Assembly (NCBI GenBank): GCA_027482685.1
Contig: JAIXVU010000001.1
Coordinates: 11-64,010, forward strand
Direction of reading: 5' to 3'
Source: a bacterium
GTDB lineage: Bacteria > Patescibacteriota > Minisyncoccia > Phycocordibacterales > UBA5272
Length of the DNA: 64,000 bases
The notes under the pieces were generated by a model. That model saw nothing but the letters and a program-made list of their open reading frames with translations. It ran no database searches and was not told the DNA's origin. Positions 284-35,960 of this stretch are shown in pieces. The first letter of the stretch is position 1; each line of letters starts with the position of its first letter. The translations under genes were made by a program, and so were the position numbers.

Positions 284-322
284 ATACAGAAAGAGGCGCC
301 GTAGGCGCCTCTTTCTGTATCT
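284..322. terminator. Palindromic hairpin gatacagaaagaggcgcc-GTAG-ggcgcctctttctgtatc (18-bp stem)
   Basis: Perfect inverted repeat with a GTAG tetraloop, directly 3' of the minus-strand membrane-protein gene. Member of the recurring gcc-GTAG-ggc hairpin family. Confidence 0.6.
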
Positions 323-342
323 ATCTGTATATGAACCTATGG

Positions 343-1020
343 TTATTCTTGAGATGATAACTTCTTGTATATTTCAGCTGATGTAAGAAGTGTGAGAGGT
401 ACAGTAATGATGAGGCCCAGACCAAGAGGAATAGCCCCAAGAATATTAAGAAGTACTACAAGAATGATATACACGATAAGTTGTACTGAGTTACCTTTTG
501 TTAGGTGATAACTCTTCTTGAGTGCGGTTATCGCTGTAATGGTTTCGTTTTCAATGATGATGTACTTATAAAACTGTAAACGGATGAGGTAATAGAATCC
601 AATAAGTAGCACAATTCCAGCACCAGTAAGTACCGGGATACTCTTAGTAATATCAAAGTCAAAGGTAGTTCCAAAAGCAAGAACACTAAGAATAGCGAGA
701 ACACCTCCTACAGTAACAGCTGCGAGAAGCCCATACACAATGCTAGCGAGAGTATAGTTAACAAACACTTTATGACTTTTAAAATGATTGAATAAGTCAG
801 CAAAGGTAGGCGTATGGCCATGCGCTATTTGAATACTTACACCGATTAAGGCAATACTAACAATAAGCATCGCAAGCACTTCTAGGAGACCTGTTTTTGC
901 AACTGAAGTTACTATAATTGTTGAAATAAAGAACGCTATCGCGAGAAACCATGCGTGTTTCTTGAGATCAGACCAGCCTTTTGTAAATACTTCTTTTTGG
1001 GTAAATGTGTGTTTTGTCAT
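343..1020 (-). CDS. Hypothetical polytopic integral membrane protein (225 aa, about 6 TM)
   Basis: Full-length ORF with host-like AT-rich codon usage and multiple hydrophobic helices. No recognisable catalytic motif. Confidence 0.55.
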   Translation of the reverse strand: MTKHTFTQKEVFTKGWSDLKKHAWFLAIAFFISTIIVTSVAKTGLLEVLAMLIVSIALIGVSIQIAHGHTPTFADLFNHFKSHKVFVNYTLASIVYGLLAAVTVGGVLAILSVLAFGTTFDFDITKSIPVLTGAGIVLLIGFYYLIRLQFYKYIIIENETITAITALKKSYHLTKGNSVQLIVYIILVVLLNILGAIPLGLGLIITVPLTLLTSAEIYKKLSSQE

Positions 1021-1174
1021 ATGAATGTAGTATACCCTTTAATTTTTCTTTAGCACTTCAAAGAGTGTGAATATCGCTTGTAGTGATTTCATGGTATATA
1101 CTGTATTAGTACATTACCATTATTATTTTTTCATCATACACAAATATATGCACATCATCATCACTGGTATCCAC

Positions 1175-1510
1175 ATGGAAATAACAGAAGCGATACGTAA
1201 CTATATTTTTGAAAAAATGAAGCCACTCGAAAAGCTTGTTCCGAAGGGGGATACAAGCGCTCAGCTCACTATTGAACTTTCTAAGACGACTAATCATCAT
1301 CAACACGGAAATATATTTCAAGCAGAAGCAAGGCTGAAGGTTAAAGGAAAAGAAAAAACTCTTACAACTACTCAAAATGATCTCTATAAGAGTATCGATA
1401 TTGTGAAAGACATGCTCTCAAGAGAGCTTGCGACATATAAAGACAAAGAGCGTTCAGTGGTGAGACGTGGAGCACATAAGGTAAAGGCATTATTTAAGAG
1501 ATTATTATAA
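1175..1510 (+). CDS. hpf: Ribosome hibernation promoting factor / RaiA (sigma-54 modulation protein family)
   Basis: MEITEAIRNYIFEKM...AEARLKVKGKEKT...DLYKSIDIVKDMLSRELATYK is typical of HPF/YfiA. The ORF-track start at 1067 adds a nonsense low-complexity N-terminus, so the internal ATG at 1175 is preferred. Confidence 0.8.
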   Translation: MEITEAIRNYIFEKMKPLEKLVPKGDTSAQLTIELSKTTNHHQHGNIFQAEARLKVKGKEKTLTTTQNDLYKSIDIVKDMLSRELATYKDKERSVVRRGAHKVKALFKRLL

Positions 1511-1517
1511 ACATCGT

Positions 1518-2249
1518 ATGGATAAAGACACACAGATTACATTTGCAGTTATAGGAGGACTAGTGTTGTTCTTAGCAGGGCTAGCGTATTTTTTACGTGA
1601 AAGTATTAATATATCAGATATTACAACTACAGAAGTTCCTGTTAAACAAATAACAGCTAAACCGACCCCGACGAAAACACCTACTAAAGTAACAACAGCA
1701 TCAACCACTAACGCAACATCAACTTCTACAACTACTAAAGCAACAACAACTATGGAAATACCAGAAAAAATTACAAGTGCAACTATTACAACTAACAAAG
1801 GGGTTATTGAAGTGACATTCGGCACAGATACTCCAGCAACTGTAGCTAACTTTGCAAAGCTTGCTAAAAGTGGGTTCTATAACGGTACACGATTCCACCG
1901 TGTTATAAAAGATTTTATGATTCAAGGAGGAGACCCGCTTTCAAAAGATATTAATCAAAAAGGCGTTTGGGGAACTGGAGGTCCTGGGTATAGATTCCCT
2001 GATGAGCTAACAGGTAAAGAAACCTACTCCCAAGGTACTCTTGCTATGGCAAATGCCGGACCTAATACTAATGGTAGTCAGTTCTTCATTGTTACCGCAA
2101 ATCCGTCTGTTGCGTTACCTCCTTCGTATACAGTGTTCGGTAAAGTTACAAAAGGTCTGGATGTGGCGTTAGTTATTCAAGATGTGAAGACCGATCCAAA
2201 TGATAGACCTCTTGAAGATGTGATAGTGGAGAAGGTGGAAGTTAGATAG
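1518..2249 (+). CDS. ppiB: Peptidyl-prolyl cis-trans isomerase, cyclophilin type, with N-terminal TM anchor and Thr-rich linker
   Basis: Cyclophilin motifs GFYNGTRFHRVIKDFMIQGGDP and GTLAMANAGPNTNGSQFFI. N-terminal hydrophobic helix followed by a T/S-rich spacer (TTASTTNATSTSTTTKATTT). Confidence 0.9.
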   Translation: MDKDTQITFAVIGGLVLFLAGLAYFLRESINISDITTTEVPVKQITAKPTPTKTPTKVTTASTTNATSTSTTTKATTTMEIPEKITSATITTNKGVIEVTFGTDTPATVANFAKLAKSGFYNGTRFHRVIKDFMIQGGDPLSKDINQKGVWGTGGPGYRFPDELTGKETYSQGTLAMANAGPNTNGSQFFIVTANPSVALPPSYTVFGKVTKGLDVALVIQDVKTDPNDRPLEDVIVEKVEVR

Positions 2250-2250
2250 T

Positions 2251-2270
2251 TAGGGGTTAGAGATTAGGAA
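2251..2270 (-). repeat. CCCTAA-type leader motif copy in inverted orientation (ttaggggttagagattagg)
   Basis: Reverse complement cctaatctctaacccctaa matches the motif upstream of frr (9664-9693). This copy sits between the convergent ppiB and fmt genes. Confidence 0.5.
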
Positions 2271-2330
2271 TCAGGTGCAGATACTAGAAAGCGATGCCGT
2301 AGGCATCGCTTTCTAGTATCTGCACCTGAT
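2271..2330. terminator. Perfect 28-bp inverted repeat with GTAG loop between convergent ppiB and fmt
   Basis: tcaggtgcagatactagaaagcgatgcc GTAG ggcatcgctttctagtatctgcacctga. The two arms are exact reverse complements. Likely a bidirectional terminator, although the stem is unusually long. Confidence 0.65.
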
Positions 2331-2352
2331 TAATCTGACTATCTCTAGCCAA

Positions 2353-3240
2353 CTAATTCATGTATCCACGCTTAAAATCTTCCCAAGATATTTCTTTTTT
2401 ACCTTCAGGGATTACAGTAAGAATAATATCTTGTACTGTTGCATCTCCTAATGTGTATGACGTTAGATCAACTCCAGTAATTTTTACCCGAATAGTTGTA
2501 CCGTGATGAGGGTAGAAGAAGTACAAAGATGGCCATGGGGTAAACGCACGGAATTTACGTCTCACAACATCTGCACTTTCAGTAAGTGATATTTCACCCA
2601 TTGATTTTTCTATTTTTTTACAATATGTTGCCTTGGTGTGATCTTGTTCTTTTGGAATCAGATTTTTGGCAATGTAACTTTCAAGCACATTACTTAGCAG
2701 GTCGCCACCTAGTTGCCCGCATGCTACTTCAAGAGTTCCGGCAGTAGCGTTAGCATCTATCATAAAGGCATTTTGAATAAGGATAGGTCCATGGTCAACC
2801 TCTTCATCAAGTTTCATAATAGTGACACCGGTTGTCATATGTCCGTCAAGAAGTACTGATTCAATAGGGGAGGCTCCGCGATACAACGGCAAAAGCGATG
2901 GATGTACGTTTAGCGTCCCATGTTTCGGGATTGCGAGAAGTTTCTCTGGGATTATCTTGCCATAACTTGCAACAATGAATACATCAAACTGTTGTGTATG
3001 AAGCGGAGATGTATCTGGTAGTTCACGTAGAGATTCGGGTTGGTAGACAGGTATACCTTGTAGCTCTGCCCATACTTTGATATGAGGTGGAGTGAGTGTC
3101 ATGTGACGACCTTGTGGTGCGTCTGGTTTTGTAACAACAAGAGCTGGAGGGTATCCGTTACGAACAAGAGACGCAAGCACACTCTCAGCAAGAGCTCCTG
3201 TACCGAAGAATGCATATGAGATAGAAGAAGTGTTCGACAT
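2353..3240 (-). CDS. fmt: Methionyl-tRNA formyltransferase
   Basis: N-terminal FFGTGALAE, the formyltransferase core NVHPSLLPLYRGASPIE and a C-terminal Fmt domain. Paired with def on the same strand. Confidence 0.9.
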   Translation of the reverse strand: MSNTSSISYAFFGTGALAESVLASLVRNGYPPALVVTKPDAPQGRHMTLTPPHIKVWAELQGIPVYQPESLRELPDTSPLHTQQFDVFIVASYGKIIPEKLLAIPKHGTLNVHPSLLPLYRGASPIESVLLDGHMTTGVTIMKLDEEVDHGPILIQNAFMIDANATAGTLEVACGQLGGDLLSNVLESYIAKNLIPKEQDHTKATYCKKIEKSMGEISLTESADVVRRKFRAFTPWPSLYFFYPHHGTTIRVKITGVDLTSYTLGDATVQDIILTVIPEGKKEISWEDFKRGYMN

Positions 3241-3362: not shown

Positions 3363-3851
3363 ATGAAAAAGCTCCTTGGACAAATCGCATTCGTTCTCTC
3401 CCTGCTTTGCTTCGGCAATGCGTTCGCGCAACAAGTGATGTACTCTTTGCAAGACGGGAACGGACAACCTCTCGGCCAGATGAACATCAACTACAAGCCG
3501 AATGGCTACGAAGCCACGATGAACGGTGAGAAGATATCTCTGGAAACTACTCACAACACAGCAACAGTGACGATGGGGAAACTCGTCATCACCATGCCGA
3601 TCAACAATACCTTCTACCACAAGGAAGTTGATAAGTGGGTAGTCAGACCTGTCACCACGTCGTTTGGTGACAAAGGTGTCCACAAGATGCTCTACTTCGG
3701 GCTTGCTATATATGGCCGGCATTATCGTGAAGAACTTTGGTTGAACGGTCGCCTTTTCATGTCATCCTCCACGGTCATCGACCACAACGATCAAATCATC
3801 TGGTCATTTGTGAAAGATTCACATGGGGCACTCTCCCTCAGACGGCTCTAG
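3363..3851 (+). CDS. Hypothetical secreted protein (162 aa), GC-rich relative to flanks
   Basis: Signal peptide MKKLLGQIAFVLSLLCFGNAFAQQ. About 48-50% GC with C-ending codons, unlike neighbours. It sits on the opposite strand between def and fmt and has its own terminator. Confidence 0.6.
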   Translation: MKKLLGQIAFVLSLLCFGNAFAQQVMYSLQDGNGQPLGQMNINYKPNGYEATMNGEKISLETTHNTATVTMGKLVITMPINNTFYHKEVDKWVVRPVTTSFGDKGVHKMLYFGLAIYGRHYREELWLNGRLFMSSSTVIDHNDQIIWSFVKDSHGALSLRRL

Positions 3852-3866
3852 TATTACCTGAGAGCT

Positions 3867-3896
3867 GAGAGCCCGCTACATGCGGGCTTTTTCTTT
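3867..3896 (+). terminator. Rho-independent terminator agcccgc-tacat-gcgggcttttt
   Basis: GC stem plus T-run directly after the 3363..3851 stop codon. Confidence 0.7.
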
Positions 3897-7463: not shown

Positions 7464-7590
7464 ATAGTACTAGTGTATAGGTTTTAGGGGATAGGGGCTA
7501 GTAGGTAACAAAAAACCTTGCGTGTCATGAGGCTGAGGGGAAAAGGGAACAAGGGGATTGATTATACTAAAAGTGTCAAGTGTTGCGTAT

Positions 7591-7620
7591 CTCTCTAAAC
7601 CTCTAGCCACTATACCCTAG
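7591..7620 (+). repeat. CCCTAA/CCTCTAGCC leader motif upstream of mreB
   Basis: ctaaacctctagccactataccctag lies 30 nt 5' of the mreB ATG. Member of the recurring motif family. Confidence 0.5.
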
Positions 7621-7650
7621 TTACCACTGGTATGATAGAATGCGTTCTAC

Positions 7651-8664
7651 ATGGGATTTTTCTTCAAGAAACTCGGAATTGATTTAGGAACAGCAAACAC
7701 TCTTGTATATGTACCAGGGAAAGGTGTTGTACTTGTTGAGCCATCTGTTGTTGCGGTGTCACAATTTGATAACAAGATAATGGCCGTTGGAAGCGATGCA
7801 AAGGACATGATAGGGAAGACACCAGATTCTATCATTGCATATCGTCCTATGCGTGATGGTGTAATTGCTGACTATCGTGTTACAGAAGCGATGCTACGTT
7901 ACTATATTCATAAAGCACTTGGCGGGTTCGCGCTCTTTAAGCCTGATGTCATGGTATCAGTTCCAGCTGGGGTTACATCAACAGAAAGACGTGCAGTAAT
8001 CGAAGCTGCTCTTAAGGCTGGAGCTCGTAATGCATATGTTGTGAAGGAGCCAATCCTTGCAGCAATAGGTGCGGGGATCCCCATTCATGAGGCGCAAGGG
8101 CGTATGATAGTTGATATTGGAGGTGGGACCACAGACGTTGCGGTGATATCTCTTGGGGGTATCGTATGCAGTACATCAGTTAAGTGTGCAGGCAACAAAA
8201 TAGATCAAGCAATTATTGATTATGTTAAGAAGACCTATAATCTTGCAATAGGAGATCAAACTGCAGAAGAAATAAAGATACAAGTAGGAAGTGCATTGCC
8301 TGTAGAAGAAGAGCTTGTTATGAAAGTAAAAGGAAGAGACTTCATAGCAGGGCTTCCACGAACAGTAGAGATACGAACTAATGAAATTGTAAAAGCGATC
8401 GACAAGGAGTTGCGTGCGATGATAAAAGCAATCAAAGATGTTCTCCAAGAGACACCACCAGAGCTCGCTTCAGATATTATCGATAACGGTATCATCATGA
8501 GTGGTGGTTCATCAATGCTTAGACATTTCCCCGATCTCGTTCTACGTCGTACGGGGGTAAAGGCAGTCCTTGCTGACGATGCGTTCTTCTGTGTTGCAAA
8601 GGGGACTGGTGTTGCGCTTGAGCATCTAGACACGTACAAGCGCTCCATCTTCGCTAAGAAGTAA
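7651..8664 (+). CDS. mreB: Rod shape-determining protein MreB (actin-like), paralog 1
   Basis: GIDLGTANTLVY, DIGGGTTDVAV and actin-fold phosphate motifs. 337 aa. Confidence 0.9.
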   Translation: MGFFFKKLGIDLGTANTLVYVPGKGVVLVEPSVVAVSQFDNKIMAVGSDAKDMIGKTPDSIIAYRPMRDGVIADYRVTEAMLRYYIHKALGGFALFKPDVMVSVPAGVTSTERRAVIEAALKAGARNAYVVKEPILAAIGAGIPIHEAQGRMIVDIGGGTTDVAVISLGGIVCSTSVKCAGNKIDQAIIDYVKKTYNLAIGDQTAEEIKIQVGSALPVEEELVMKVKGRDFIAGLPRTVEIRTNEIVKAIDKELRAMIKAIKDVLQETPPELASDIIDNGIIMSGGSSMLRHFPDLVLRRTGVKAVLADDAFFCVAKGTGVALEHLDTYKRSIFAKK

Positions 8665-8947
8665 CTTGTCGAAAAATCACTGCATCTACTTCTTTGTAAA
8701 GATTTTTTTGCTCCTGTGATGTACAACTTGTACATCTTAGTCTCAAAAAATCTATACGCCTCGTATCTACAGCATTTTTTCAACAAGTGAGTGGGGGATA
8801 AAATGTGTAACTCTTTCGTTACGTTTGTTACTCGCTCGTCAATGTACAAGTAAGTACAACTCCTCGCCCGCTCCTTCCTGATTAAGATTTGCATCATTTT
8901 CTGCTCTCGTTAGAATTTACTACTAACTAGTTTGCTATACTGTTTCA

Positions 8948-9622
8948 ATGAAATCTGTCATCACATTCTCTGAGATTCCTCCACATCATGCTGTGCTTAT
9001 GGTGCATAAAGAGAGAGGCGCCGTGGGCGCCTCTCTCTTTGACGAATTAAAAGAGTTGTCTCCGGTTCATAGATTCTTTGACCAGTCAGTTCTAGATATT
9101 GAGACAGCGAGATATATATCGTCGTGGTCTAACACTCCATACAGTGGAGAAAAAGTTGGGCTTATTTCCTTCAATACAGCTGGACTTGAAGCACAGAATG
9201 CTCTCCTTAAAGTTTTAGAAGAGCCAAGAGCAGGTGTACGCTTCATCATTATTACAACACACAGAGAGCACCTCATCCCAACAGTCTTATCAAGGCTTCA
9301 TCAGATGAATCTTACACAAGATGTTCTTCATGATGAGATGTATACAAAAGCTTACACATTTCTCACAACTCCAAAAGTTAACAGAATGAATCTCAAAGAA
9401 GTAAAATTGCTTCTTGAAGAAGAAGATGAAGAGGGACGCAAGAAACGCGAGTCCGTCAAGAGTTTTATCCTCGCACTTACTGATGTTTTGAAAACTGAAA
9501 ACAGTGAATCAAGATATATTCTTGAAACGTTAGAGTTCGCTTCATATGCATCTCGTCCTTCAACATCAGGCAAAGCGCTCATTGAGTACCTTGCTCTTCT
9601 ATTGCTAGAGATTAGAAATTAA
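8948..9622 (+). CDS. holB: DNA polymerase III delta' subunit-like clamp-loader protein (short form)
   Basis: AQNALLKVLEEP sensor motif and IPTVLSR, with no Walker A, fit delta'. 224 aa. An alternative TTG start is possible near 9055. Confidence 0.7.
   Translation: MKSVITFSEIPPHHAVLMVHKERGAVGASLFDELKELSPVHRFFDQSVLDIETARYISSWSNTPYSGEKVGLISFNTAGLEAQNALLKVLEEPRAGVRFIIITTHREHLIPTVLSRLHQMNLTQDVLHDEMYTKAYTFLTTPKVNRMNLKEVKLLLEEEDEEGRKKRESVKSFILALTDVLKTENSESRYILETLEFASYASRPSTSGKALIEYLALLLLEIRN
9008..9040. repeat. Palindromic hairpin aaagagagaggcgcc-GTGG-ggcgcctctctcttt embedded in-frame in the holB 5' region
   Basis: Core agaggcgccgtRggcgcctct is identical to the intergenic hairpin at 284-322. Here it encodes KERGAVGASLF inside the holB ORF. 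Confidence 0.6.
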
Positions 9623-9663
9623 TGTACAATTTGTCTACTAATAAGGTATTAAATTTTGTATTT

Positions 9664-9693
9664 CCTAACCCCTAATCTCTATACCCTAACTAT
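9664..9693 (+). repeat. CCCTAA leader motif (cctaacccctaatctctataccctaactat) abutting the frr start codon
   Basis: Ends 1 nt before the frr ATG. No SD sequence is present. Confidence 0.55.
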
Positions 9694-10248: not shown

Positions 10249-10283
10249 AAGTAAGGAGTATACTATAACAAATAACTAAATTA

Positions 10284-10318
10284 GAAATGAGGGACACCTG
10301 CGGTGTCCCTCATTTCTA
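10284..10318 (+). terminator. Terminator agaaatgagggacacc-tgcg-ggtgtccctcatttct
   Basis: Perfect 16-bp stem after the frr stop. Confidence 0.7.
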
Positions 10319-10382
10319 ATTGTATGTATCGCATGAAATATCTTTGCTATGGTATACTTTTGACTATCAAATAACTTAATTT

Positions 10383-11495
10383 ATGTCGCTTACCACTATC
10401 TTATTGTTCCTTCTTATTATTGTTGTTCTGGTGCTTATTCATGAACTTGGGCATTTCTTAGCAGCGAAGTGGGTTGGGATGAGGGTGGATGAGTTTGCTT
10501 TTGGATTTCCTCCAAGACTTTTCAGTAAAAAAATTGGCGAGACAGTCTATGCGTTCAATGCGTTACCGCTTGGTGGGTATGTTGCTATTTGGGGTGAAAA
10601 TGGATCAGAAGATGATAACAAAGAAGATGGCGCAAAACATCACAAGAGAGCGTTTGGTAATCGTCCATGGTGGGCACAGTTATTTGTACTAGTTGCAGGT
10701 GTAACGATGAACATGTTACTTGCGCTTTTTATATTCATTATTATTTCATACGGTCCAGTAAATATTAGTACCACAGATGAGATATATGGTGATCGTGTAC
10801 GAAATGCACAAATGGTAATTGTCGACACGTTACCTAATAGCCCAGCTCTTAATGCAGGCTTGAAACCAGGAACAGTTATCACGAGTATGACAGCAGGTCG
10901 TCAGAAGGCTGACATGACAACTGCAACATCACTCGTACTCTTTATTAACCGTAACATTGATACACCGTTTGTTGTTACCTATAAGACGCCTAAGGGTGAA
11001 TACGCAAGTACGACAATTGCTGCGGTGTACGGAGTTGTCCCTCATGGTAAGAAGGCGCTCGGTATTGCAGTAGATACAATCGGCACTGTTGATATTGGTT
11101 TTTTTGAATCATTCACGCTTGGTGCTGAGAGAACATATCAGATGACACTCATGACTGTGTATGGCTTACGAGATGTGCTTGTCTCTTTAGGTAAAGGTGA
11201 GAATGTACTTCAATCACTTTCAGGTCCTGTGGGTATCGCACGTATTGTAGGGGAAACGAGTGAGTATGGAATGGATCCACTGCTTACTCTCGTTGCTGTG
11301 CTATCTATCAATCTTGCAATCTTTAATATTCTCCCGCTTCCGGCACTTGATGGTGGGCGTATGGTTATGGTGATTATTGAAACAATTACACGACGCAAGA
11401 TTCCGTTTAAGTATTACTCTTGGTTAAATGGTGTAGGATTCATAGCACTTCTCTTACTTCTCGTTGTTGTAACATTTAAAGATTTTACACAGTAG
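10383..11495 (+). CDS. rseP: RIP zinc metalloprotease RseP (site-2 protease)
   Basis: HELGHFLAAKWVGMRVDEFAFGFPPRL HExxH motif, a PDZ-like middle region and NILPLPALDGGRMV. Confidence 0.9.
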   Translation: MSLTTILLFLLIIVVLVLIHELGHFLAAKWVGMRVDEFAFGFPPRLFSKKIGETVYAFNALPLGGYVAIWGENGSEDDNKEDGAKHHKRAFGNRPWWAQLFVLVAGVTMNMLLALFIFIIISYGPVNISTTDEIYGDRVRNAQMVIVDTLPNSPALNAGLKPGTVITSMTAGRQKADMTTATSLVLFINRNIDTPFVVTYKTPKGEYASTTIAAVYGVVPHGKKALGIAVDTIGTVDIGFFESFTLGAERTYQMTLMTVYGLRDVLVSLGKGENVLQSLSGPVGIARIVGETSEYGMDPLLTLVAVLSINLAIFNILPLPALDGGRMVMVIIETITRRKIPFKYYSWLNGVGFIALLLLLVVVTFKDFTQ

Positions 11496-12915: not shown

Positions 12916-12937
12916 ACCCGCGCCGTAGGCGCGGGTC
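12916..12937. terminator. Bidirectional terminator acccgcgcc-GTAG-gcgcgggt
   Basis: GC hairpin with GTAG loop between the convergent proS (+) and 12954..13352 (-) genes. Confidence 0.7.
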
Positions 12938-12953: not shown

Positions 12954-13352
12954 TCAGACAGGTGAAGGTGTCCGTGTGAACATCTTCTTCTCTTCTTCGG
13001 TCACATCTCCGGGGATCTCGAACTCGTTATCGATCCTCTTGATACGGCCATCACACAGGCCGTCAACGTAGTCGAGGAGCTTCATCTCTTCCGACGTCTG
13101 ATCAGCAATGATCAGTCCGTAGAGGGCAGTTGAGTAGCTGAAGCTTAGCCCCCCGTTGCGTTCTTTTTCTCGATACGAAATCTTGTCGTGATTGATTCCG
13201 TCGAGTAGCAGCTTCTTGGCGAGTTCGTCACGTTGTTTCAGAACCTCGTCGAGACGGCGGCTAAGTATGTTCATTTGTTTGCTGTGACGCTTTTTGTTTT
13301 TCTTGAACGTGTATCGCCAAATCATGATGATGCCGATGTAGACGATGTGCAT
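12954..13352 (-). CDS. Hypothetical protein (132 aa), GC-rich with SD
   Basis: About 50% GC. AGGAG sits 6 nt before the ATG. No recognisable domain. Flanked by AT-rich core genes. Confidence 0.5.
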   Translation of the reverse strand: MHIVYIGIIMIWRYTFKKNKKRHSKQMNILSRRLDEVLKQRDELAKKLLLDGINHDKISYREKERNGGLSFSYSTALYGLIIADQTSEEMKLLDYVDGLCDGRIKRIDNEFEIPGDVTEEEKKMFTRTPSPV

Positions 13353-13469: not shown

Positions 13470-14519
13470 ATGTTTAGCAGTCTCTATCATCGCTTTTCAA
13501 ATGACATCGGAATTGACCTAGGTACTGCAAACACCCTTGTATATCTTGGTGGTAGAGGTATCGTTATCAACGAGCCATCGGTTGTTGCGCTTAACACAAA
13601 GACTAACCGAGTGGTTGCGGTAGGAATGGAAGCAAAGAATATGATGGGTCGCACGCCACAGCATATACGCATTGTTAGACCACTTGTTGACGGAGTGATA
13701 TCTGATTATGAAGTTACAGAAGAGATGCTCAGCTATCTTATCAACAAAGCAAATGAGATAGATAAGAAATTATTCCGCCCACGTGTTGTTATCGGCATAC
13801 CGGTGGGTATCACTAATGTGGAGATGCGCGCTGTGTATGATGCCGCTATATCAGCAGGTGCGCGTGAGGTCTACATCGTAGAAGAACCAATGGCGGCAGC
13901 TATAGGTGTGAGACTTCCAATACATGAACCAGTAGGCAGTATGATGGTGGACATTGGTGGCGGCACAACAGATATTGCAGTTATTGCGCTCTCTGGAGTA
14001 GTGCGCGCAAAGAGCTTAAAAGTTGCAGGCGATAAACTAACAGAAGATATCATCACCTATATGCGTGATGAGTTCAAGATGTTAATAGGAGAAAAGACAG
14101 GTGAGCATATCAAGATGACGATAGGGTCAGCACTCCCAGATGAACATGGTGAAGAGATGAGTATCAAGGGACGAGATCTTGTTACAGGGCTACCACGTGA
14201 AGCAATAATTACTGATGTTGATATCCGTCAAGCAATGTATAGCTCTATCTCCCAGTTAGTTGATGTTATTCGTGAAGTACTTGAGACTACACCACCTGAA
14301 GTACTCTCTGATATCATGCAACGCGGTATAGTAGTTTCAGGTGGTGGGGCGCTTATTCGTAACTTGCCTAAACTACTTGAAATGCAACTTAAAGTTCCAG
14401 TTACTGTATCTGATGATCCATTAACAGCAGTTGCTCGCGGAACAGGAGTTATACTAGAGCATATTGATGAGTACAAAGACGTGCTAATCAAAAATACAGA
14501 TGACATATCTTTCCGATAA
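13470..14519 (+). CDS. mreB: Rod shape-determining protein MreB, paralog 2
   Basis: GIDLGTANTLVY and DIGGGTTDIAVI. 349 aa. Followed by mreC and PBP2. Confidence 0.9.
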   Translation: MFSSLYHRFSNDIGIDLGTANTLVYLGGRGIVINEPSVVALNTKTNRVVAVGMEAKNMMGRTPQHIRIVRPLVDGVISDYEVTEEMLSYLINKANEIDKKLFRPRVVIGIPVGITNVEMRAVYDAAISAGAREVYIVEEPMAAAIGVRLPIHEPVGSMMVDIGGGTTDIAVIALSGVVRAKSLKVAGDKLTEDIITYMRDEFKMLIGEKTGEHIKMTIGSALPDEHGEEMSIKGRDLVTGLPREAIITDVDIRQAMYSSISQLVDVIREVLETTPPEVLSDIMQRGIVVSGGGALIRNLPKLLEMQLKVPVTVSDDPLTAVARGTGVILEHIDEYKDVLIKNTDDISFR

Positions 14520-17178: not shown

Positions 17179-17201
17179 GGGACAGTACAAAGTACTGTCC
17201 C
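17179..17201. terminator. Bidirectional terminator gggacagtac-aa-agtactgtccc
   Basis: Perfect palindrome between the convergent mrdA (+) and 17224..17757 (-) genes. Confidence 0.65.
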
Positions 17202-18740: not shown

Positions 18741-18769
18741 GGGTAGTCAATAGTTTATGGTTAATAGTA

Positions 18770-18800
18770 GAACACGCGCGACCGAAGGTCGCGCGTGTTC
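18770..18800 (+). terminator. Terminator gaacacgcgcgacc-GAAG-gtcgcgcgtgttc
   Basis: Perfect 14-bp stem after greA. Related to the hairpin at 20843. Confidence 0.7.
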
Positions 18801-18923
18801 TGTATTTAACTAATTACAAATTACTAATAACTAATTACTTGTGCTTCCATATCGACTAAACTTCTCCAATTTGTTACTATACTGTATATCAACACGCATC
18901 TCAACTATTAACATTAACTATCC

Positions 18924-20531: not shown

Positions 20532-20840
20532 ATGATGCCAACTATCACAGTTCGGCTTGGAAGTACTCAAGATGTAACTACTTGCGAAGTTAGTGAAAAT
20601 GAACTTAAAGTGCTTAATTGTATAGGCGACAAAGAACTTACTCCGCTTCAGATTAGCAGGTTGATAAGTTATAAGGAAATCGAAAAGTCTAAACTTTATT
20701 CCATATTAGCAAAACTTCTTGCTAAAGGTCTCTTACAAAAAAAGCAAAAGTTTGTTCAAGAAGGTACCGCTTTGAAGAAAGCGGTATGTTATAAGAGAGC
20801 CTTTACTTTTGTTATTTTGATGATGGAAACAAAAGTGTAA
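20532..20840 (+). CDS. Small hypothetical protein, possible winged-helix DNA-binding (about 102 aa)
   Basis: LKVLNCIGDKELTPLQISRL...LYSILAKLLAKGLL resembles a MarR/wHTH recognition helix. GGAGGT SD overlaps the alternative ATGs. Confidence 0.4.
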   Translation: MMPTITVRLGSTQDVTTCEVSENELKVLNCIGDKELTPLQISRLISYKEIEKSKLYSILAKLLAKGLLQKKQKFVQEGTALKKAVCYKRAFTFVILMMETKV

Positions 20841-20842: not shown

Positions 20843-20874
20843 TAAGCGCGACCGAAGGTCGCGCTTGTTTTTGT
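20843..20874 (+). terminator. Terminator aagcgcgacc-GAAG-gtcgcgctt plus T-run
   Basis: GC hairpin followed by tgtttttg. Confidence 0.7.
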
Positions 20875-20883
20875 ATCAACCAT

Positions 20884-20910
20884 TCCCTAATCCCTAACCT
20901 CTAGACCCTA
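20884..20910 (+). repeat. CCCTAA leader motif (ccctaatccctaacctctagaccctag)
   Basis: Lies between the terminator and the mraZ promoter. Confidence 0.5.
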
Positions 20911-20957
20911 GTTCTGGATATCCACACTTTTTTCTAGGTATTTAGGTAGAAAGTGGA

Positions 20958-24639: not shown

Positions 24640-24917
24640 AACTAAAAAACGTTGTAGTATATTTCCATACTGTTGTTTTGTCCAAGAAAGGTGTAAGCAA
24701 TGAAAGAAAGAAAATCACTTCCCACTCTGTCTCTTGTCGCGTGGATGAGAGTGCGATTTGCGAGGTTCGATCCGCCAACATACGGCGAACTGTGGGTCAG
24801 AACTCTTCTCTTTCTGTCTTCACGTTTGAGAAGCCTTTCTCTCAGGCTCGAACGCGCTGCAAAAAAGCACAAGTGACGAAGTGAAAAGGCCGTACCCACG
24901 TTGTGGGTACGGCCTTT
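24640..24917 (+). ncRNA. Candidate structured ncRNA or cis-regulatory leader (about 270 nt), family unknown
   Basis: GC-rich block (about 50%) in an AT-rich genome with no credible ORF on either strand. Contains a tRNA-T-loop-like GGTTCGATCC. Ends in a strong hairpin aaaggccgtaccc-acgttgt-gggtacggccttt 26 nt before the photolyase ATG. Confidence 0.4.
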
Positions 24918-27384: not shown

Positions 27385-27415
27385 TTCATTCGTCAATGTA
27401 GGTTCACTACACCTC
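27385..27415 (+). repeat. Diverged copy of the 3'-UTR repeat element (tcaatgtaggttcactacacctcctcat)
   Basis: Shares the tgtag-gttNa-ctaca hairpin with the copies at 32557 and 37972. Located 40 nt after the methyltransferase stop. Confidence 0.4.
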
Positions 27416-28238: not shown

Positions 28239-28243
28239 TTAGC

Positions 28244-28270
28244 GCTAACCCCTAACCTCTAGCCCCTAAC
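28244..28270 (+). repeat. CCCTAA leader motif (ctaacccctaacctctagcccctaaca) abutting the start codon
   Basis: Ends 2 nt before the ATG at 28273. Confidence 0.55.
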
Positions 28271-28272
28271 AT

Positions 28273-28500
28273 ATGATAAAAGAATTCCTCCTCAAACAAG
28301 CAGTCAAACGTGGCGCAAAAGATCTTCCAAAAGAACAACAGGAAATGCTCACCAAAGCGGTAGAACAGAACCCAGAGCTTTTCAGTAAGATTGCAAAAGA
28401 AATCGAAGCCTTGAAGAAATCCGGTAAGCCAGAGATGTACGCAGCACTTGATGTGATGAAGAAGTATCAGAAGGAACTTTCGGTACTTTTTAAGCAGTAA
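28273..28500 (+). CDS. Hypothetical small protein (75 aa, helical, Lys/Glu-rich)
   Basis: Host-like codon usage. Preceded by the leader motif. Confidence 0.45.
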   Translation: MIKEFLLKQAVKRGAKDLPKEQQEMLTKAVEQNPELFSKIAKEIEALKKSGKPEMYAALDVMKKYQKELSVLFKQ

Positions 28501-28981: not shown

Positions 28982-29713
28982 TTGCATATGGATAGACATC
29001 CCGAAATTATCGAGACGACACCAACGATTGGCAACGTGCAAGAACTCCCTCAGGATGTTCCAACACTTCAGGCTGAGGTATTGCGCCTACGAGAGGAAGT
29101 GAGACGTTTACAAGAAGAGGCACTCACAGATAGTCTCACAGGGTTACCTAACAGACGTTACGCTGACCAAGAGATAAAAACTCTTTTCGCCCAAAGAGGG
29201 AGAAATGAGATAGACTCATTCAGTGTTATTGCATTTGATCTAGATGGTTTCAAGGCGATCAATGACAAAGGTGGACACCTCGCAGGGGATGAATGTCTCA
29301 AGATTGTCGCAGAGGAGATCCGGAATACATTACGAACTACCGACTTCTTCGCACGCGAAGGAGGGGATGAGTTTCTTATTTTCCTACGTAACGAGCCACA
29401 TGCAACAACAGTTGCTGAGAATGTGCTCAAGAGAATGAATGACAACGTAACCACAAGGTTACGCGAGTATACAAAGGACGAAACGTCCTGGATATCAGCA
29501 AGTATTGGTCTTGTAACGATAGCAGATGATAGTAGCTTGCGAGGTATCACATCATCAAAGGATGTGCTTACTCAGGCAGACTATGTGAGGTATGTGGTAA
29601 AGGCAGCTGGTAAAAAAGGAGTCTTCACCCTCGAGCAAGCCCGCGAGGTAGACACAGACGGCAGATACTGGAAGCAATTTGTGGAGAATAAAATAGGGAA
29701 GGTCTCAGTGTAA
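28982..29713 (+). CDS. Diguanylate cyclase (GGDEF domain) with N-terminal coiled coil
   Basis: LTGLPNRRY, DLDGFKAINDKGGHLAGDECL and the canonical active site REGGDEFL. Confidence 0.85.
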   Translation: MHMDRHPEIIETTPTIGNVQELPQDVPTLQAEVLRLREEVRRLQEEALTDSLTGLPNRRYADQEIKTLFAQRGRNEIDSFSVIAFDLDGFKAINDKGGHLAGDECLKIVAEEIRNTLRTTDFFAREGGDEFLIFLRNEPHATTVAENVLKRMNDNVTTRLREYTKDETSWISASIGLVTIADDSSLRGITSSKDVLTQADYVRYVVKAAGKKGVFTLEQAREVDTDGRYWKQFVENKIGKVSV

Positions 29714-30352: not shown

Positions 30353-31369
30353 ATGGCAAAGAAAAAACAAACATCAAAAACAACTACAATTTTTAATAAC
30401 AACGTCATTGTCTATCAGACAAAGTCAGGAGCACTCGAGCTAAAGGGTGATTATACAGGTGAGACAGTGTGGGCAACACAGGCGCAGATAGCAGAGGTGT
30501 TTGGTATAGAACGATCCGTTATAACTAAGCACATTAGAAATATTTATAAAGAAGATGAATTAAATGAGAAAGCAACATGTGCAAAAATTGCACAAGTTCA
30601 AATTGAAGGAAAACGTAGAGTTGAACGTGAAGTAGAGCACTATAATCTTGATCTTATTATTTCCGTTGGTTATCGAGTTAATTCAAAGACAGCCACCTCC
30701 TTTCGTCAGTGGGCGACAAGGACGCTTCGTGAACATTTAACTAAAGGGTATACACTGAATAAGAAAGTTATCCTCGAGAACTACGATCAATTTATTAAAA
30801 ATGTGTCCGAAATACAAGCGCTACTTCCGGAGCATGTGACGCTTGACCCAAAGGGAATACTTGATCTAGTAAAAGAATATGCAACAACATGGTCCAAGCT
30901 TGATGCGTATGATAAAGATGAGCTCACCTCAGAAGGTGTCACAAAGAAGAAAATTAAAATTAATGCAGATGAGCTTTCTACTACTGTAGAAACATTCAAA
31001 ACAGAACTTATAAAAAAAGGTGAAGCTACAGAAATTTTCGCACAAGAACGAGCCTCTGGAAATCTAGAAGGTATATTAGGGAATGTGATGCAGTCATTTG
31101 GTGGTTCTGATGTGTATAAGACACTGGAAGAAAAGGCGGCACACCTTCTCTATTTTATGGTGAAGAATCATCCATTTGTAGATGGGAATAAACGCTCAGG
31201 AGCTTTTACTTTTATCTGGTTCTTGAGAAAATCAGGAGTTCGTGGAGCTAAGAACATCAATCCATCCGGACTGACCGCTATTACACTTCTCATTGCAGAA
31301 AGTGACCCAAAGCATAAAGAAAAGGTAGTTGCCCTTGTTGTAGAACTTCTCAAAACAAAAGTGAAATAA
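30353..31369 (+). CDS. RhuM-family N-terminal domain fused to Fic/Doc (death-on-curing-like) domain
   Basis: RhuM signature VWATQAQIAEVFGIERSVITKHIRNIY...YNLDLIISVGYRVNSKTATSFRQWATRTLREH. C-terminal Doc-type motif HPFVDGNKRSGAF. Confidence 0.75.
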   Translation: MAKKKQTSKTTTIFNNNVIVYQTKSGALELKGDYTGETVWATQAQIAEVFGIERSVITKHIRNIYKEDELNEKATCAKIAQVQIEGKRRVEREVEHYNLDLIISVGYRVNSKTATSFRQWATRTLREHLTKGYTLNKKVILENYDQFIKNVSEIQALLPEHVTLDPKGILDLVKEYATTWSKLDAYDKDELTSEGVTKKKIKINADELSTTVETFKTELIKKGEATEIFAQERASGNLEGILGNVMQSFGGSDVYKTLEEKAAHLLYFMVKNHPFVDGNKRSGAFTFIWFLRKSGVRGAKNINPSGLTAITLLIAESDPKHKEKVVALVVELLKTKVK

Positions 31370-31419: not shown

Positions 31420-31454
31420 AGCCCCTAGTCCCTAAACCCTAACCTCTAGCCCTT
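31420..31454 (+). repeat. CCCTAA leader motif (gcccctagtccctaaaccctaacctctagccctt) abutting ychF start
   Basis: Ends at the nucleotide before the ychF ATG. Confidence 0.55.
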
Positions 31455-32552
31455 ATGTCTCTCTCTATCGGAATCGTCGGCCTACCAAATGTTGGTAAGT
31501 CAACACTATTCAATGCTATCACCAAGAAATCTGTTCCAGCAGATAACTATCCGTTCTGTACCATTGATCCATCAGTAGGTATCGTTCCTGTACCAGATGC
31601 ACGTCTAGAAGTCCTCTCAAAAATTTCTAGTTCAAAGAAGATAATCCCAGCTATCGTTGAGTTCGTCGATATTGCAGGACTAGTAAAAGGTGCAAGTGAA
31701 GGGCAAGGACTAGGCAACCAATTCCTCTCACATATTCGTGAGACAGATGCAATTGCTGAGGTGGTACGTATCTATGAGAACGGTGACCTCATCCACGTAG
31801 AAGGGACAGTTGACCCGCTTCGTGATATCGAGATCATCAATATGGAGCTCATACTAGCTGATATGTCTACGGTTGAGAAGCGTATACAGACTATCGGTCG
31901 TGATGTAAAGCGTGGGGATAAGGATGCTATAAAACTAGACGAGCTACTCAAGCGTCTGAAGAGTCACCTAGAAGAAGAAAAACTCGCCAACAGACTATCG
32001 CTTGATGAAGAAGAGAAGCGACTCGTGAAAGAACTTCATTTGATCACGATGAAACCTTTTCTCTATGTACTCAACAAGCAATCAGGTGGCAAGAACCTAG
32101 ATGAAATGGGGGACGATAGATTTACCAAGCTAATAGCGTATTTCAAAGAGCATAACTTCCAGTATGTGGTGGTAGATGCCAAGATAGAAGATGAGCTCAA
32201 AGAGTTTGAAGGCGAGGAGAAGGAAATGATGCGTGCTGAGCTCGGCGCGCATGATAATGGAGTAGATGGACTTATCAAAGCCGGATATGATCTTTTAGGC
32301 CTTGAGACATACCTCACCACAGGGGAGATGGAGACACGTGCATGGACTGTAAAAAAGGGGAGTACCGCACCAGTAGCAGCTAGTGCGATACACACGGACT
32401 TCGAGCAGAAGTTTATACGCGCAGAAGTTGTTGCGTATGATGACCTTGTGAAGGCAGGAGGCTTCGCGGAAGCAAAGTCACAAGGTGTACTACGGACAGA
32501 AGGGAAGGAGTATATTGTTCACGACGGTGACGTCATCGAATTTAAGATATAA
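31455..32552 (+). CDS. ychF: Ribosome-binding ATPase YchF (Obg-family GTPase fold)
   Basis: GIVGLPNVGKSTLFNAIT P-loop, DIAGLVKGASEGQGLGNQFL and the C-terminal TGS domain. Confidence 0.92.
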   Translation: MSLSIGIVGLPNVGKSTLFNAITKKSVPADNYPFCTIDPSVGIVPVPDARLEVLSKISSSKKIIPAIVEFVDIAGLVKGASEGQGLGNQFLSHIRETDAIAEVVRIYENGDLIHVEGTVDPLRDIEIINMELILADMSTVEKRIQTIGRDVKRGDKDAIKLDELLKRLKSHLEEEKLANRLSLDEEEKRLVKELHLITMKPFLYVLNKQSGGKNLDEMGDDRFTKLIAYFKEHNFQYVVVDAKIEDELKEFEGEEKEMMRAELGAHDNGVDGLIKAGYDLLGLETYLTTGEMETRAWTVKKGSTAPVAASAIHTDFEQKFIRAEVVAYDDLVKAGGFAEAKSQGVLRTEGKEYIVHDGDVIEFKI

Positions 32553-32556
32553 ATTA

Positions 32557-32665
32557 CCCCATCTACTTTGTCGCTACGAAATTTTCCTCAGTCATCGTAG
32601 GTCTACTACGACTCTTTCAAAAATTTCTAAGCTTCGCATATCTGAGGCAATTTCTATCTTAAATC
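32557..32665 (+). repeat. 3'-UTR repeat element copy A (catctactttgtcgctacgaaattttcctcagtcatcgtaggtctactacg...tctgaggcaattt)
   Basis: Starts 5 nt after the ychF stop. About 75% identical over about 105 nt to the element after alaS. Contains the hairpin cgtag-gtcta-ctacg. Confidence 0.6.
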
Positions 32666-32714
32666 TGCATAGAATCTATAATAATTTTTGAATTTTGAAG
32701 TATAATATATACAT

Positions 32715-32769
32715 CACCTCATCTACTTTGTCGCTACGAAATTTTCCTCAGTCATCGTAGGCCTACTAT
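32715..32769 (+). repeat. 3'-UTR repeat element copy B (partial direct duplicate of copy A)
   Basis: cacctcatctactttgtcgctacgaaattttcctcagtcatcgtaggcctacta is 52/53 identical to the 5' half of copy A, 160 nt downstream. Confidence 0.6.
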
Positions 32770-33159: not shown

Positions 33160-33169
33160 GGGTTGTTGG

Positions 33170-34638: not shown

Positions 34639-34836
34639 AATTATTTTAATGTTTTGCCAGCTTGAAAATGATAATTGACTATTTTTAAGCCGGTTAACTA
34701 GATTTAATCTAGAGGTGAAATAAAATATCTACACATCATGTAGTACATAGTGAGAGGGGGAAGGTATATCCTATGAACTAATTTTTCCTCTCCAGTCATA
34801 CATTTGACTATTACTACAAATAACTATCGTATAATC

Positions 34837-35295
34837 ATGAAATCTACAATAAAAAAAGCATCACTCTTAGGAGCGCTAGGTATGGCAGTAGCAGGCGTTG
34901 CAACTGCTTCTGCTATGGGGTTCGGTGGTTTTGGTGGCGGAATGATGAGCACTCTTACAACGGATGAAATTGCGACACGTCAGACAACTATGTTTCAAAA
35001 ACAAGCAGAGCTTATCGGCGCAACTACTGATGAAATCAAGAACGCTTGGGCTGATGGAACAGACTTTCTTACTTTTGCTAAATCAAAAGGGGTAACCGAG
35101 GAAGCTCTCAAGGTCAAATTGCAAGCTGTTCGTGTTGCAGAGTTAAAGACACAGCTAGATATGCTCGTTAGTAAAGGTGTCATCACCCAAGCACAGGCAG
35201 ACAAGCGATTAGCCACCATGCAAACCAAAATGACAAATAAGAAATCATTTGGTATGGGTCGTGGTCATCACGGGATGATGGGCGGATTATTTTAG
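34837..35295 (+). CDS. Secreted Gly/Met/His-rich protein (putative periplasmic metal-binding)
   Basis: Signal peptide MKSTIKKASLLGALGMAVAGVATASA. GFGGFGGGMM and GMGRGHHGMMGGLF Met/His clusters resemble Cu-binding motifs. The ORF track starts 11 codons earlier. Confidence 0.5.
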   Translation: MKSTIKKASLLGALGMAVAGVATASAMGFGGFGGGMMSTLTTDEIATRQTTMFQKQAELIGATTDEIKNAWADGTDFLTFAKSKGVTEEALKVKLQAVRVAELKTQLDMLVSKGVITQAQADKRLATMQTKMTNKKSFGMGRGHHGMMGGLF

Positions 35296-35370
35296 TGCAC
35301 ATCTCTTGCGAATGTAAGGGATGTATAAAAACAATAGTTGTTCTTTAATAAAAGTATAATTATATATTGC

Positions 35371-35404
35371 AAAACAGGCGCCCTAAATGGAGGCGCCTGT
35401 TTTG
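35371..35404 (+). terminator. Terminator aaaacaggcgcc-ctaaatgg-aggcgcctgtttt
   Basis: 12-bp stem plus T-run after the secreted-protein gene. Confidence 0.7.
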
Positions 35405-35552
35405 TTTTTTAGAGAAGTGAAACATCCTTATAGCTTGCCCTGAGTTTGTAAAAGGAAGGTGGGGGATAGTTTGCCGAGTAGACAAAGCACGGTATCAATT
35501 TTTGCAAATTAATTTTTAAACATGTAGAGTATCCCATAGATCCACGTAGGTC

Positions 35553-35885
35553 GTGGAAGGAGAAATGGTGATGAGCGATATCAATCGAGAGTTCGATACA
35601 ACTGTTGAACTTGTGAGGGCAGCTGAGATTGAGCTAATCCAACATATTGGAGAAGTAAACGCCAGAAAACATGAGCTACTCTCCTACAAATTTCTCAAGT
35701 TCAACAGTGAGAAAGAGTATGCCTGGCAGGCGTTATTGCGTAGGTTCTCAAGAAACCCAGAGCAAAAAGGAAACGTGCAAGGTGTCGAAGAGCTCACCTT
35801 TGCACTTCGTGCGTACCTTGCGGCACTAGAAGCAGAACTAGAAAAGCCGCTAGAAGTACAGCAAAAGCAAAGTACTGCAAGCTAG
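35553..35885 (+). CDS. Hypothetical protein (110 aa), GC-rich with strong SD
   Basis: GGAAGGAGAA directly precedes the ATG. No known motif. Confidence 0.5.
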   Translation: MEGEMVMSDINREFDTTVELVRAAEIELIQHIGEVNARKHELLSYKFLKFNSEKEYAWQALLRRFSRNPEQKGNVQGVEELTFALRAYLAALEAELEKPLEVQQKQSTAS

Positions 35886-35931
35886 GGTGTATCTGATGTT
35901 GCTACTTCATCTTCAGATTTTTGAAAGGGTC

Positions 35932-35960
35932 AAGCGCGCCGTAGGCGCGCTTTCTTTTTA
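35932..35960 (+). terminator. Terminator aagcgcgcc-GTAG-gcgcgctt plus T-run
   Basis: GTAG-loop hairpin family member. Confidence 0.7.

Follow-up and report, generated by a model that had tools for sequence, protein, structure and literature searches.

A stretch of 64,000 nucleotides (nt) from a bacterium of the UBA5272 lineage of Patescibacteriota (contig JAIXVU010000001.1, assembly GCA_027482685.1), hereafter called the window, carries a set of GC-rich, perfectly paired hairpins, many of them situated just behind genes and one of them situated within holB, the gene of the delta' subunit of DNA polymerase III. It is considered probable that two different things have to be distinguished here: the intergenic hairpins would serve as transcription terminators, and the hairpin of holB would be a separate cis-acting structure maintained by selection. 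The intergenic members have the features of ordinary Rho-independent terminators, often usable from two sides, and termination itself is predicted from these features and from the comparison with related genomes. The holB hairpin occupies the same codons in a number of relatives, where its arms have changed and remained paired.

Hairpins at gene ends as putative terminators

Perfect inverted repeats with loops of 3-8 nt were searched for exhaustively over the whole window. At minimum stem lengths of 8, 9 and 10 base pairs (bp) this gave 27, 18 and 14 hairpins respectively, whereas 100 dinucleotide-preserving shuffles yielded on average 6.1, 1.65 and 0.37 (maximum 3 for the 10-bp limit). The stems are perfect, 9-30 bp long and GC-rich, and have the stability that is required of an intrinsic terminator. 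Folding energies of the RNA range from -19 to -59 kcal/mol for the eight copies named in the preliminary description of this DNA (z-scores from -2.7 to -13.3) and from -13 to -55 kcal/mol across the wider set of hairpins. All the named copies were found again, within 1-2 nt of the positions reported for them, among them the one with a TTTA loop and a 12-bp stem at 45888-45915 (hairpins are called below by their first position). Their loops had been taken for GTAG or GAAG tetraloops, however gcc-gta-ggc spans 9 nt, therefore the loop is a triloop (C-GTA-G or C-GAA-G), consisting of GTA, GTG or GAA closed by a C-G pair. The arms agaaag...ctttct, regarded as a mark of the family, are present at 283 and 2269 only; agagag is found at 9008, a partial match at 35932 and none at 12916. 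The family of at least six members is real as far as its copies are concerned, but the set is larger, with at least 17 hairpins having a stem of 9 bp or more, and it is more varied. Loops beyond the GTA/GAA type are TGC at 10279, AAA at 17179, GTT at 24885, AAT at 44758, GCGA at 52702 and AGTAAA at 49802. In a scan against Rfam no family rose above threshold except a truncated transfer RNA (tRNA), and the sub-threshold matches to MicX (32.9 bits, cut-off 75) and mir-BART16 (29.2 bits, cut-off 100) were dismissed as chance hairpin matches.

The strongest argument for termination is the position of the hairpins. When open reading frames (ORFs) of at least 90 amino acids (aa) are considered, 12 of the 17 hairpins with a stem of at least 9 bp lie no more than 60 nt downstream of a stop codon, compared to 9% of random segments (p ~1e-9), and the distance to the stop is 3-46 nt for most of them; intragenic hairpins occur in holB, murG, rpsI and the wHTH gene. 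The location between convergent genes, formerly ascribed to most copies, applies to two of the eight (2269 and 12916), the others being placed after plus-strand genes in tandem (four), after a minus-strand gene (one) or within a gene (one). Direct inspection together with a consensus scan revealed that U-rich sequence comes after the GC core in the transcribed strand of most hairpins. Such a tract is seen at 3867, 18769, 20844, 35932, 44758, 45888 and 52702, and on the minus strand at 12916 and 17179, while 283, 2269 and 10279 have T-rich 3' arms and the T tract at 24885 is weak. In many of them the 5' arm is A-rich and pairs with the U-rich 3' stretch, so that the palindrome becomes long and perfect; being A-rich on one side and T-rich on the other, these hairpins could stop RNA polymerase arriving from either side. 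The hairpins 12916 and 17179 probably serve the adjacent minus-strand gene only, because their T-run is on that strand only. The proposal that these elements are bidirectional intrinsic terminators is thus supported by their anatomy, by their proximity to stop codons and by the hairpins found at the same gene ends in relatives, but some of them would work one way.

Further evidence was provided by a comparison set of twenty-odd syntenic related loci (designated by L-numbers), with 46-58% identity in holB and conserved gene order. The same perfect palindromes with A-rich arm, GC core and T-rich arm occur throughout these loci, many of them at gene ends matching those of the window, for example AAAAAACCCGCAG-TCGC-CTGCGGGTTTTTT after frr in L004 or, in L014, a stem of 22 bp behind greA. 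The arms at the greA site read AGAACACGCGCGACC-GAA in the window, ACAAAGTGCGACC-TTC in L012, ..AACACGAGCGAAACC-TTC in L014 and CAAAGAGCGACCAC-AAA in L009; the four terminators have a GCGA(C/A)CC arm in common, and the loop has been flipped between GAA and TTC. At the site between the PPIase gene and fmt, AAAGCG(A/G) arms are found in 5-6 genomes, among them the window, L173, L007, L021 and L093. Given these related arms, the terminators of the two sites appear to be orthologous and vertically inherited; the greA terminator is orthologous in relatives, and the one between the PPIase gene and fmt probably so, judging by its arms. An early view that orthologous sites bear unrelated hairpins was abandoned as too strong, since the arms at greA, and in part those at the PPIase-fmt site, are related. 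It can be proposed that terminators of this lineage are long, perfectly complementary palindromes with a GC core often capped by a C-GNA-G triloop, which would pass down vertically at gene ends, drift and yet stay paired, and now and then be copied locally.

The loops themselves show a preference. Triloops of the GNA type (TNC on the complementary strand), closed by C-G, account for 7 of 12 triloops in the window and for 23 of 80 in 1.6 Mb of related loci, compared to 12.5% expected. Loops of the d(GNA) type with a C-G closing pair are very stable (PMC3201870). Selection on the loop sequence at the RNA level was considered and rejected, since there is no sense-strand bias in transcripts (6 GNA versus 8 UNC), therefore no particular RNA loop is favoured. 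The preference would agree with a use of the hairpins from both sides, or with stability of one DNA strand. Two-way terminators are widespread according to Ju, Li and Liu 2019 (PMC6814526), as that work is cited in PMC13613805.

In common with known intrinsic terminators, the hairpins have a GC stem-loop just past the stop codon, with U-rich sequence on its 3' side and, allowing two-way use, A-rich sequence on its 5' side, and their position is conserved while the sequence drifts. They differ in that the stems reach 30 bp and are perfect, that one core is over-used in the genome, and that the loops are mostly of 3 nt, with C-GNA-G over-represented instead of the usual tetraloops. Two results speak against the assignment as terminators. 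When the first 20 kb were scanned with a loose terminator consensus, 16 hits versus 12.4 expected were obtained, which is no overall enrichment, and the strong hairpins alone stand out; moreover, the T-run is missing on one or both sides at 12916 and 17179 (plus strand) and at 24885. No paper was found in a literature search for terminators in Patescibacteria. The intergenic hairpins are of value mainly for annotation and for the terminator grammar of Patescibacteria (CPR), and they illustrate that look-alike palindromes are not necessarily mobile elements.

Shared hairpin cores within the genome and their possible copying

Plain vertical descent does not account for all that is seen, and the results in this paragraph count against a reading of the hairpins as nothing but inherited terminators. 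At least 8 loop-proximal stem bases are shared by 3 of 136 pairs of hairpins within the window and by 6 of 6145 pairs between genomes (0.13 expected, p ~4e-4), and a GCGCC stem top is present in 5 of 17 window hairpins versus 5 of 243 in relatives (p ~1e-4). A side observation from L173 is of the same kind: two identical 27-nt palindromes, AAAAAGCCCCGC-GTT-GCGGGGCTTTTT, stand at 11303-11329 and 14349-14375, after frr and proS, with unrelated flanks, and they are the clearest copied terminator within these genomes. The sharing of cores within one genome, together with this pair, indicates some copying process beyond plain vertical descent.

The motif GCCGTRGGC occurs five times in the window (0.2 expected), each time on the plus strand, and the identical 21-nt core AGAGGCGCCGT(A/G)GGCGCCTCT, pointed out in the preliminary description, is indeed common to 283-321 and to the copy in holB. 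A repeat finder grouped 283, 2269 and 9008 in one family (D4, identity 66-84%) and 18769 with 20844 in another (D6, common core of 19 nt). The core of 20844 is the core of the greA terminator 2 kb upstream, and the winged-helix gene in front of it (20523-20840) was not seen between aspS and mraZ in L171, the sole relative with both genes called; a local copy is therefore likely, and 20844..20866 is likely to be a locally copied terminator. The GCGCC-GTA-GGCGC core is over-used in the genome of the window, owing either to occasional duplication of terminators or to a preference of the genome for one core.

These same results (the excess of shared stem tops within the window, the two repeat families and the palindrome pair of L173) would be the basis for regarding the hairpins as copies of a small mobile palindromic unit of the REP, MITE or BIME kind, one of which landed in holB, as had been suggested. 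This explanation is considered improbable. The identity between copies never runs past the palindrome and usually covers 9-13 nt, two pairs reaching 19-21 nt. Outside the core, copies that share it have unrelated arms and flanks, no target-site duplications were seen around them, and a scan of approximately 50 window proteins revealed neither a transposase nor a RAYT-like protein. There is only a handful of copies per 64 kb, most window hairpins are unrelated to one another, and many unrelated hairpins do the same job. The orthology of the greA terminator, and probably of the one between the PPIase gene and fmt, also argues against it. The holB copy, which was central to the idea of insertion, adds no residues, shows no indel and is strictly orthologous in 10 other genomes; strict orthology of copies was what the preliminary description itself had named as contrary to its proposal. 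What remains of the copying idea is the sharing of stem tops within the genome above the between-genome level and the apparent local copy at 20844, which is a weaker claim than that of a mobile unit.

Enterobacterial REP and BIME elements with their RAYT proteins resemble the window hairpins in being short extragenic palindromes at gene 3' ends and in the presence of GTAG. REPs have a conserved GTAG 5' of the stem, in contrast to the GTAG described here, which lies at the junction of loop and 3' arm. The window hairpins also differ in their low copy number and in having no single consensus of 20-40 nt, and one copy is intragenic and orthologous (in frame in holB), whereas REPs are strictly extragenic. 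Neither do they resemble a MITE, in which terminal inverted repeats enclose an internal segment and target-site duplications flank the element: each unit consists of a single hairpin with a loop of 3 nt, and direct repeats at its borders are absent. It should be mentioned that REP and BIME palindromes can affect termination and mRNA decay (bioRxiv 10.64898/2026.03.23.713779).

As a further explanation, the over-used core GCGCC-GTA-GGCGC, including the holB copy, would be recognised by a sequence-specific factor encoded in this genome. Dimeric DNA-binding proteins, RNA-binding proteins, nucleases and restriction-modification enzymes (for GGCGCC or GCGC) would come into question. The two-fold symmetry and the strong over-representation of the core would agree with such a factor, as would the GGCGCC-GTA/TAC-GGCGCC top found also on terminators of L171 and L173 and on the holB hairpin of L004. 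However, orthologous holB hairpins keep their pairing and not their sequence (tops GAGGCC, AAAGCC, GATGCC and GGCAC), most window terminators have other cores, the loop orientation is unbiased relative to the transcript, as stated above, and no candidate factor was found, so that this explanation is regarded as very improbable.

A paired structure within holB

The holB gene (8948..9622, plus strand, 224 aa) hosts a 15-bp perfect palindrome with a GTG loop at 9008..9040, translated in frame as K E R G A V G A S L F. Residues 20-32 of the protein align without gaps with 16 homologues, therefore the hairpin is not an insertion. Rickettsia palindromic elements (RPEs) were reportedly found by Ogata et al. 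in 2000 to be inserted in frame into genes; they are insertions of 100-150 bp which add residues. The two cases have in common that a palindrome is translated as part of an essential protein, and differ in that the holB hairpin aligns residue for residue, with no extra residues against the 16 homologues, on which ground an RPE-like in-frame insertion was rejected. A start of holB downstream of the hairpin was rejected as well, in view of the conservation of the N-terminal sequence MK.S.LP.HHAVL and of the choice of this ATG by gene callers. The hairpin segment resembles what is presumably the degenerate Walker-A motif (P-loop) of delta', to judge by the DnaX motif HHAYLFSG-RGVGKTS. The hairpin thus looks to be placed on a degenerate Walker-A segment, an assignment made by inference, because holB was aligned in a solved-structure search from the Walker-B region onward only.

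On the same codons a hairpin is present in 11 genomes: the window, L004, L007, L009, L014, L091, L169, L171, L173, L174 and partly L172. It reads GAGCGCGGCGCC-GTA-GGCGCCGCGCTC in L004, GAGCGCGAGGCC-GTA-GGCCTCGCGCTC in L007, GAGCGCAAAGCC-TAC-GGCTTTGCGCTC in L171, GAACGCGATGCC-GTA-GGCATCGCGTTC in L174 and AAGATCGAGGCAC(T-TAC-G)GTGCCTCGATCTT in L169; L173 has the arms of L007 except for the closing pair (GCT for GCC) and a GAA loop, in L009, L014 and L091 10-11 of 12 pairs are formed, and in L172 the structure is decaying. In the alignment of these 11 sequences 95.5% of cells are paired, a percentage inflated by the choice of sequences for their palindromic look, which is a point against the reading in terms of selection and does not inflate the variety of pairs. 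Both-sided changes are seen at 7 of 12 pairs. None of 500 shuffles matched the observed values, and pairing fell to 32-54% when the partner was slid by 1-3 columns. The structure is held across lineages in which holB is only 57-66% identical at the nucleotide level.

Because both arms are read in frame, their pairing is reflected in the protein by mirror-image residue pairs (E/L, R/A, R/S, G/A, K/F, D/I) around a variable centre, corresponding to mirror codon changes such as GAG/CTC, CGC/GCG, AGA/TCT, GGC/GCC, AAA/TTT and GAT/ATC, among others. Proteins fully compatible with a 12-bp codon palindrome make up 20 of 116 homologues, compared to 14 of 23,799 background windows of 9 residues; in L170 the protein is palindrome-compatible, yet the hairpin has decayed at the DNA level. 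Synonymous sites are constrained too. The 27-nt segment has 73% GC versus 38% for the gene (38% versus 40% in hairpin-free homologues). The same codon is used for the same residue with a frequency of 0.80 in the arms versus 0.46 elsewhere (0.39 versus 0.41 in the group with no hairpin), and GC at third codon positions (GC3) amounts to 0.86 in the arms versus 0.28 in the rest of the gene (0.30 versus 0.30). A second holB clade, with approximately 29% identity to the window protein, was noted to have a hairpin of its own: in L109 (1796-1824) and in the same holB region of L141 a 10-12 bp hairpin, TCCCGAAGAG...CTCTTCGGGA, stands directly after the HHAYLLVG strand, which is the same place as in the window, with unrelated sequence and out of codon register. 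Most of 46 distant holB genes have nothing of this kind, L109 and L141 being the only ones with a hairpin.

It may be inferred from these comparisons that the holB hairpin, an apparently old, GC-rich structure of 12-15 bp, is a selected cis-acting nucleic-acid structure. The fuller version, in which the hairpin is under selection, the structure dictates the local residues and acts in cis on holB and frr, and the window copy has converged on a terminator core or exchanged with one, is advanced tentatively, its chance being put slightly below even. Several results tell against selection. No U-tract follows the holB hairpin in relatives, therefore it is not a canonical terminator there. Most holB homologues are without the hairpin, including the close ones of L006 and L011, therefore it is dispensable, and hairpin-compatible sequences are scattered on a rough neighbour-joining tree; the hairpin is either old with many losses or was repeatedly re-formed. 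In addition, template switching is known to give rise to perfect hairpins and to preserve them, to make their arms alike in one step and to invert their spacers, in coding sequences as well and with no selection involved (PMC8794818, PMC8604942), and a loop inversion of exactly this kind is seen between L014 (117-141) and L091 (690-714), where the arms are identical and the loop is TAC in the former and GTA in the latter (Tyr versus Val), the genes being 87% identical.

The last two results form the core of a rival explanation, according to which the holB palindrome has no function, template switching between its arms homogenises them and inverts the 3-nt spacer, and the outcome is tolerated owing to weak constraint on the protein in the degenerate P-loop-like segment of delta'. 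It would agree as well with the absence of the hairpin from most homologues, with its scatter on the tree, with the bimodal number of Watson-Crick pairs across homologues (9-12 or no more than 5) and with the exceptional stability of the C-GNA-G cap in DNA (PMC3201870). Template-switch hairpins (PMC8794818; PMC8604942) have in common with the holB hairpin the perfect arms, the changes in both arms, the GTA/TAC spacer inversion, the location in coding sequence and the multi-residue changes in protein. They differ in that those studies deal with a mutational process, whereas here a GC-enriched element is kept at one site across lineages. Template switching preserves complementarity but on its own predicts neither the GC3 nor the GC content of the segment; long intragenic hairpins elsewhere in the surveyed loci are rare, scattered and non-recurrent; the second holB clade has its unrelated hairpin at the same spot; and the structure persists among the divergent holB genes mentioned above. 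The extreme GC3 together with the recurrence at one site makes selection the favoured explanation, although stability-dependent conversion could mimic part of this signal, and the functionless palindrome is thought somewhat unlikely.

If the holB hairpin is selected, it would most likely form in the mRNA as a stable structure, starting some 50 nt inside the ORF, and lower holB expression relative to downstream frr, or uncouple the two, and candidate routes are slower translation, a block to exonucleolytic RNA decay, and transcriptional pausing or attenuation. In the window the stem reaches 15 bp through an extension of its arms (AAA..TTT, encoding K and F), with a U-rich 3' side; as this side and the core match the terminator at 283, partial termination inside holB is conceivable. 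In E. coli dnaX, a clamp-loader subunit gene, a frameshift-stimulating stem-loop is located in the coding sequence. The holB hairpin shares with it the presence of a stable hairpin within the coding sequence of a clamp-loader gene, and differs in having no slippery heptamer and in its place only 17 codons from the start, from which no useful second product would result. A dnaX-like frameshift signal was rejected, as no heptamer of the form X XXY YYZ, expected 5-9 nt ahead of the stem, was found in the 11 sequences, the upstream codons being CAT AAA, CAT GGT, GAT AGT and similar. A literature search on the holB hairpin returned nothing relevant. The hairpin is of interest as a natural case in which nucleic-acid pairing has been kept although the protein encoded by an essential replication gene is altered by it, and would represent an undescribed cis-regulatory element of the operon for clamp loader and ribosome recycling, or else a coding palindrome perpetuated by template switching.

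Individual hairpins, gene content and other repeats

On the minus strand, the hairpin at 283..321 has an 18-bp perfect stem with a GGCGCC core and a loop that is GTA on the plus strand and UAC in minus-strand RNA. It stands 21 nt past the 3' end of a DUF975-like gene (343-1020, minus strand), of which it is the likely terminator (folding energy -37 kcal/mol, z -8.5). The hairpin at 12916..12936 (9-bp stem, core CGCGCC, loop GTA) is placed 17 nt past the 3' end of a hypothetical gene (12954-13352, minus strand) and is likely its one-way terminator, and the one at 17179..17201 (10-bp stem, loop AAA/TTT) lies between the genes of PBP2 (plus) and of a hypothetical protein (minus). Two hairpins are not assigned to one strand. 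The longest, 2269..2331, with a 30-bp perfect stem and a GTA loop, separates the convergent PPIase gene (1518-2249, plus) and fmt (2353-3240, minus) and is a likely two-way terminator; at 44758..44784 the 12-bp hairpin AAAAAACTGCAC-AAT-GTGCAGTTTTTT is found between convergent rpsI (plus) and a hypothetical gene (minus).

The remaining hairpins are on the plus strand. Likely terminators are 10279..10321 (20-bp perfect stem, loop TGC, or GCA on the minus strand, 30 nt past frr), 35932..35952 (9-bp stem, core GCGCGCC, loop GTA, followed by TCTTTTTATA, 46 nt past a hypothetical gene and upstream of alaS) and 45888..45915 (core CCCCCGCGCC, 4 nt past the stop of an ORF and upstream of grpE). The greA hairpin, 18769..18801, has a 15-bp stem with core GCGCGACC and a GAA loop and begins 28 nt past the gene; its 19-nt core is repeated at 20844..20866, where a 10-bp stem followed by GTTTTTGTAT begins 3 nt past the small winged-helix gene. 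At 3867..3891, GAGAGCCCGC-TACAT-GCGGGCTTTT and a T-run stand 15 nt past ORF 3363-3851, and at 52702..52727 an 11-bp stem with a tetraloop of the GNRA type and a T-run stands 17 nt past ORF 52181-52684. The hairpin at 49802..49827 has a 10-bp stem and begins 26 nt past dnaJ, and that at 24885..24917, with a 15-bp perfect stem, begins 264 nt past an ftsI-like PBP gene. Within murG, about 100 nt ahead of its stop, an 11-bp perfect hairpin, ACGTATCCTTG-AAGA-CAAGGATACGT, was noted at 62540-62565.

The window has 40% GC and a positive GC skew throughout, and the plus strand holds most genes. Its proteins are of the housekeeping type: fmt, def, MreB, delta', RRF, an M50 protease, a short ProRS, a short AlaRS, PBP2, GreA, AspRS, MraZ, ribosomal proteins, RpoA, GrpE-DnaK-DnaJ and MurG. 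Matches to the holB protein are confined to Logan and NCBI assemblies, and the nearest relatives, annotated as Candidatus Paceibacterota or Nomurabacteria, are no more than 58% identical; the window is accordingly regarded as part of a CPR/Patescibacteria chromosome. A tRNA gene at 1-63 (minus strand, Rfam tRNA score 49.7 bits) is cut by the start of the window and is missed by ARAGORN because of this truncation. In otherwise housekeeping surroundings, a gene with RhuM and Fic/DOC domains (30353-31369), adjoining a GGDEF gene (28982-29713), may be an accessory or toxin-like insert. Between mreB and holB, 283 nt (8665-8947) are free of genes in the window; the only ORF reported there (8256-8897, minus strand) overlaps mreB and is probably spurious. 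At this position two minus-strand genes are present in L006, L007, L170, L171 and L174, and one in L173.

Two other repeats were noted near gene starts and ends. A C-rich heptad (CYCTARN) is repeated 3-5 times, for example as CCCTAATCCCTAACCTCTAGACCCTAG, and the pattern CTAAYCCCTAAYCTCTA has 12 matches versus 0.38 expected. Copies are located at 7485-7501 (minus), 7593-7624, 9662-9693, 20880-20915, 28242-28273, 31423-31460 (plus) and 2251-2274 (minus). Several of them end 0-30 nt ahead of start codons (priA-like, mreB, frr, ychF and an ATG at 28271), and the repeat may be a leader or promoter-proximal element which replaces the Shine-Dalgarno sequence. Heptad repeats abut the hairpins 2269 and 20844, and a looser copy flanks 283. 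The other repeat, of approximately 66 nt and 70-92% identity, is found at 32543-32608, 32703-32768 and 37958-38023, with its 3' part at 27393-27415. It begins at or just past the stops of ychF (two tandem copies), alaS and a methyltransferase gene and ends in a small conserved hairpin, GTAG-GTTYA-CTAC, constituting a second 3'-end element unrelated to the GC-core hairpins.

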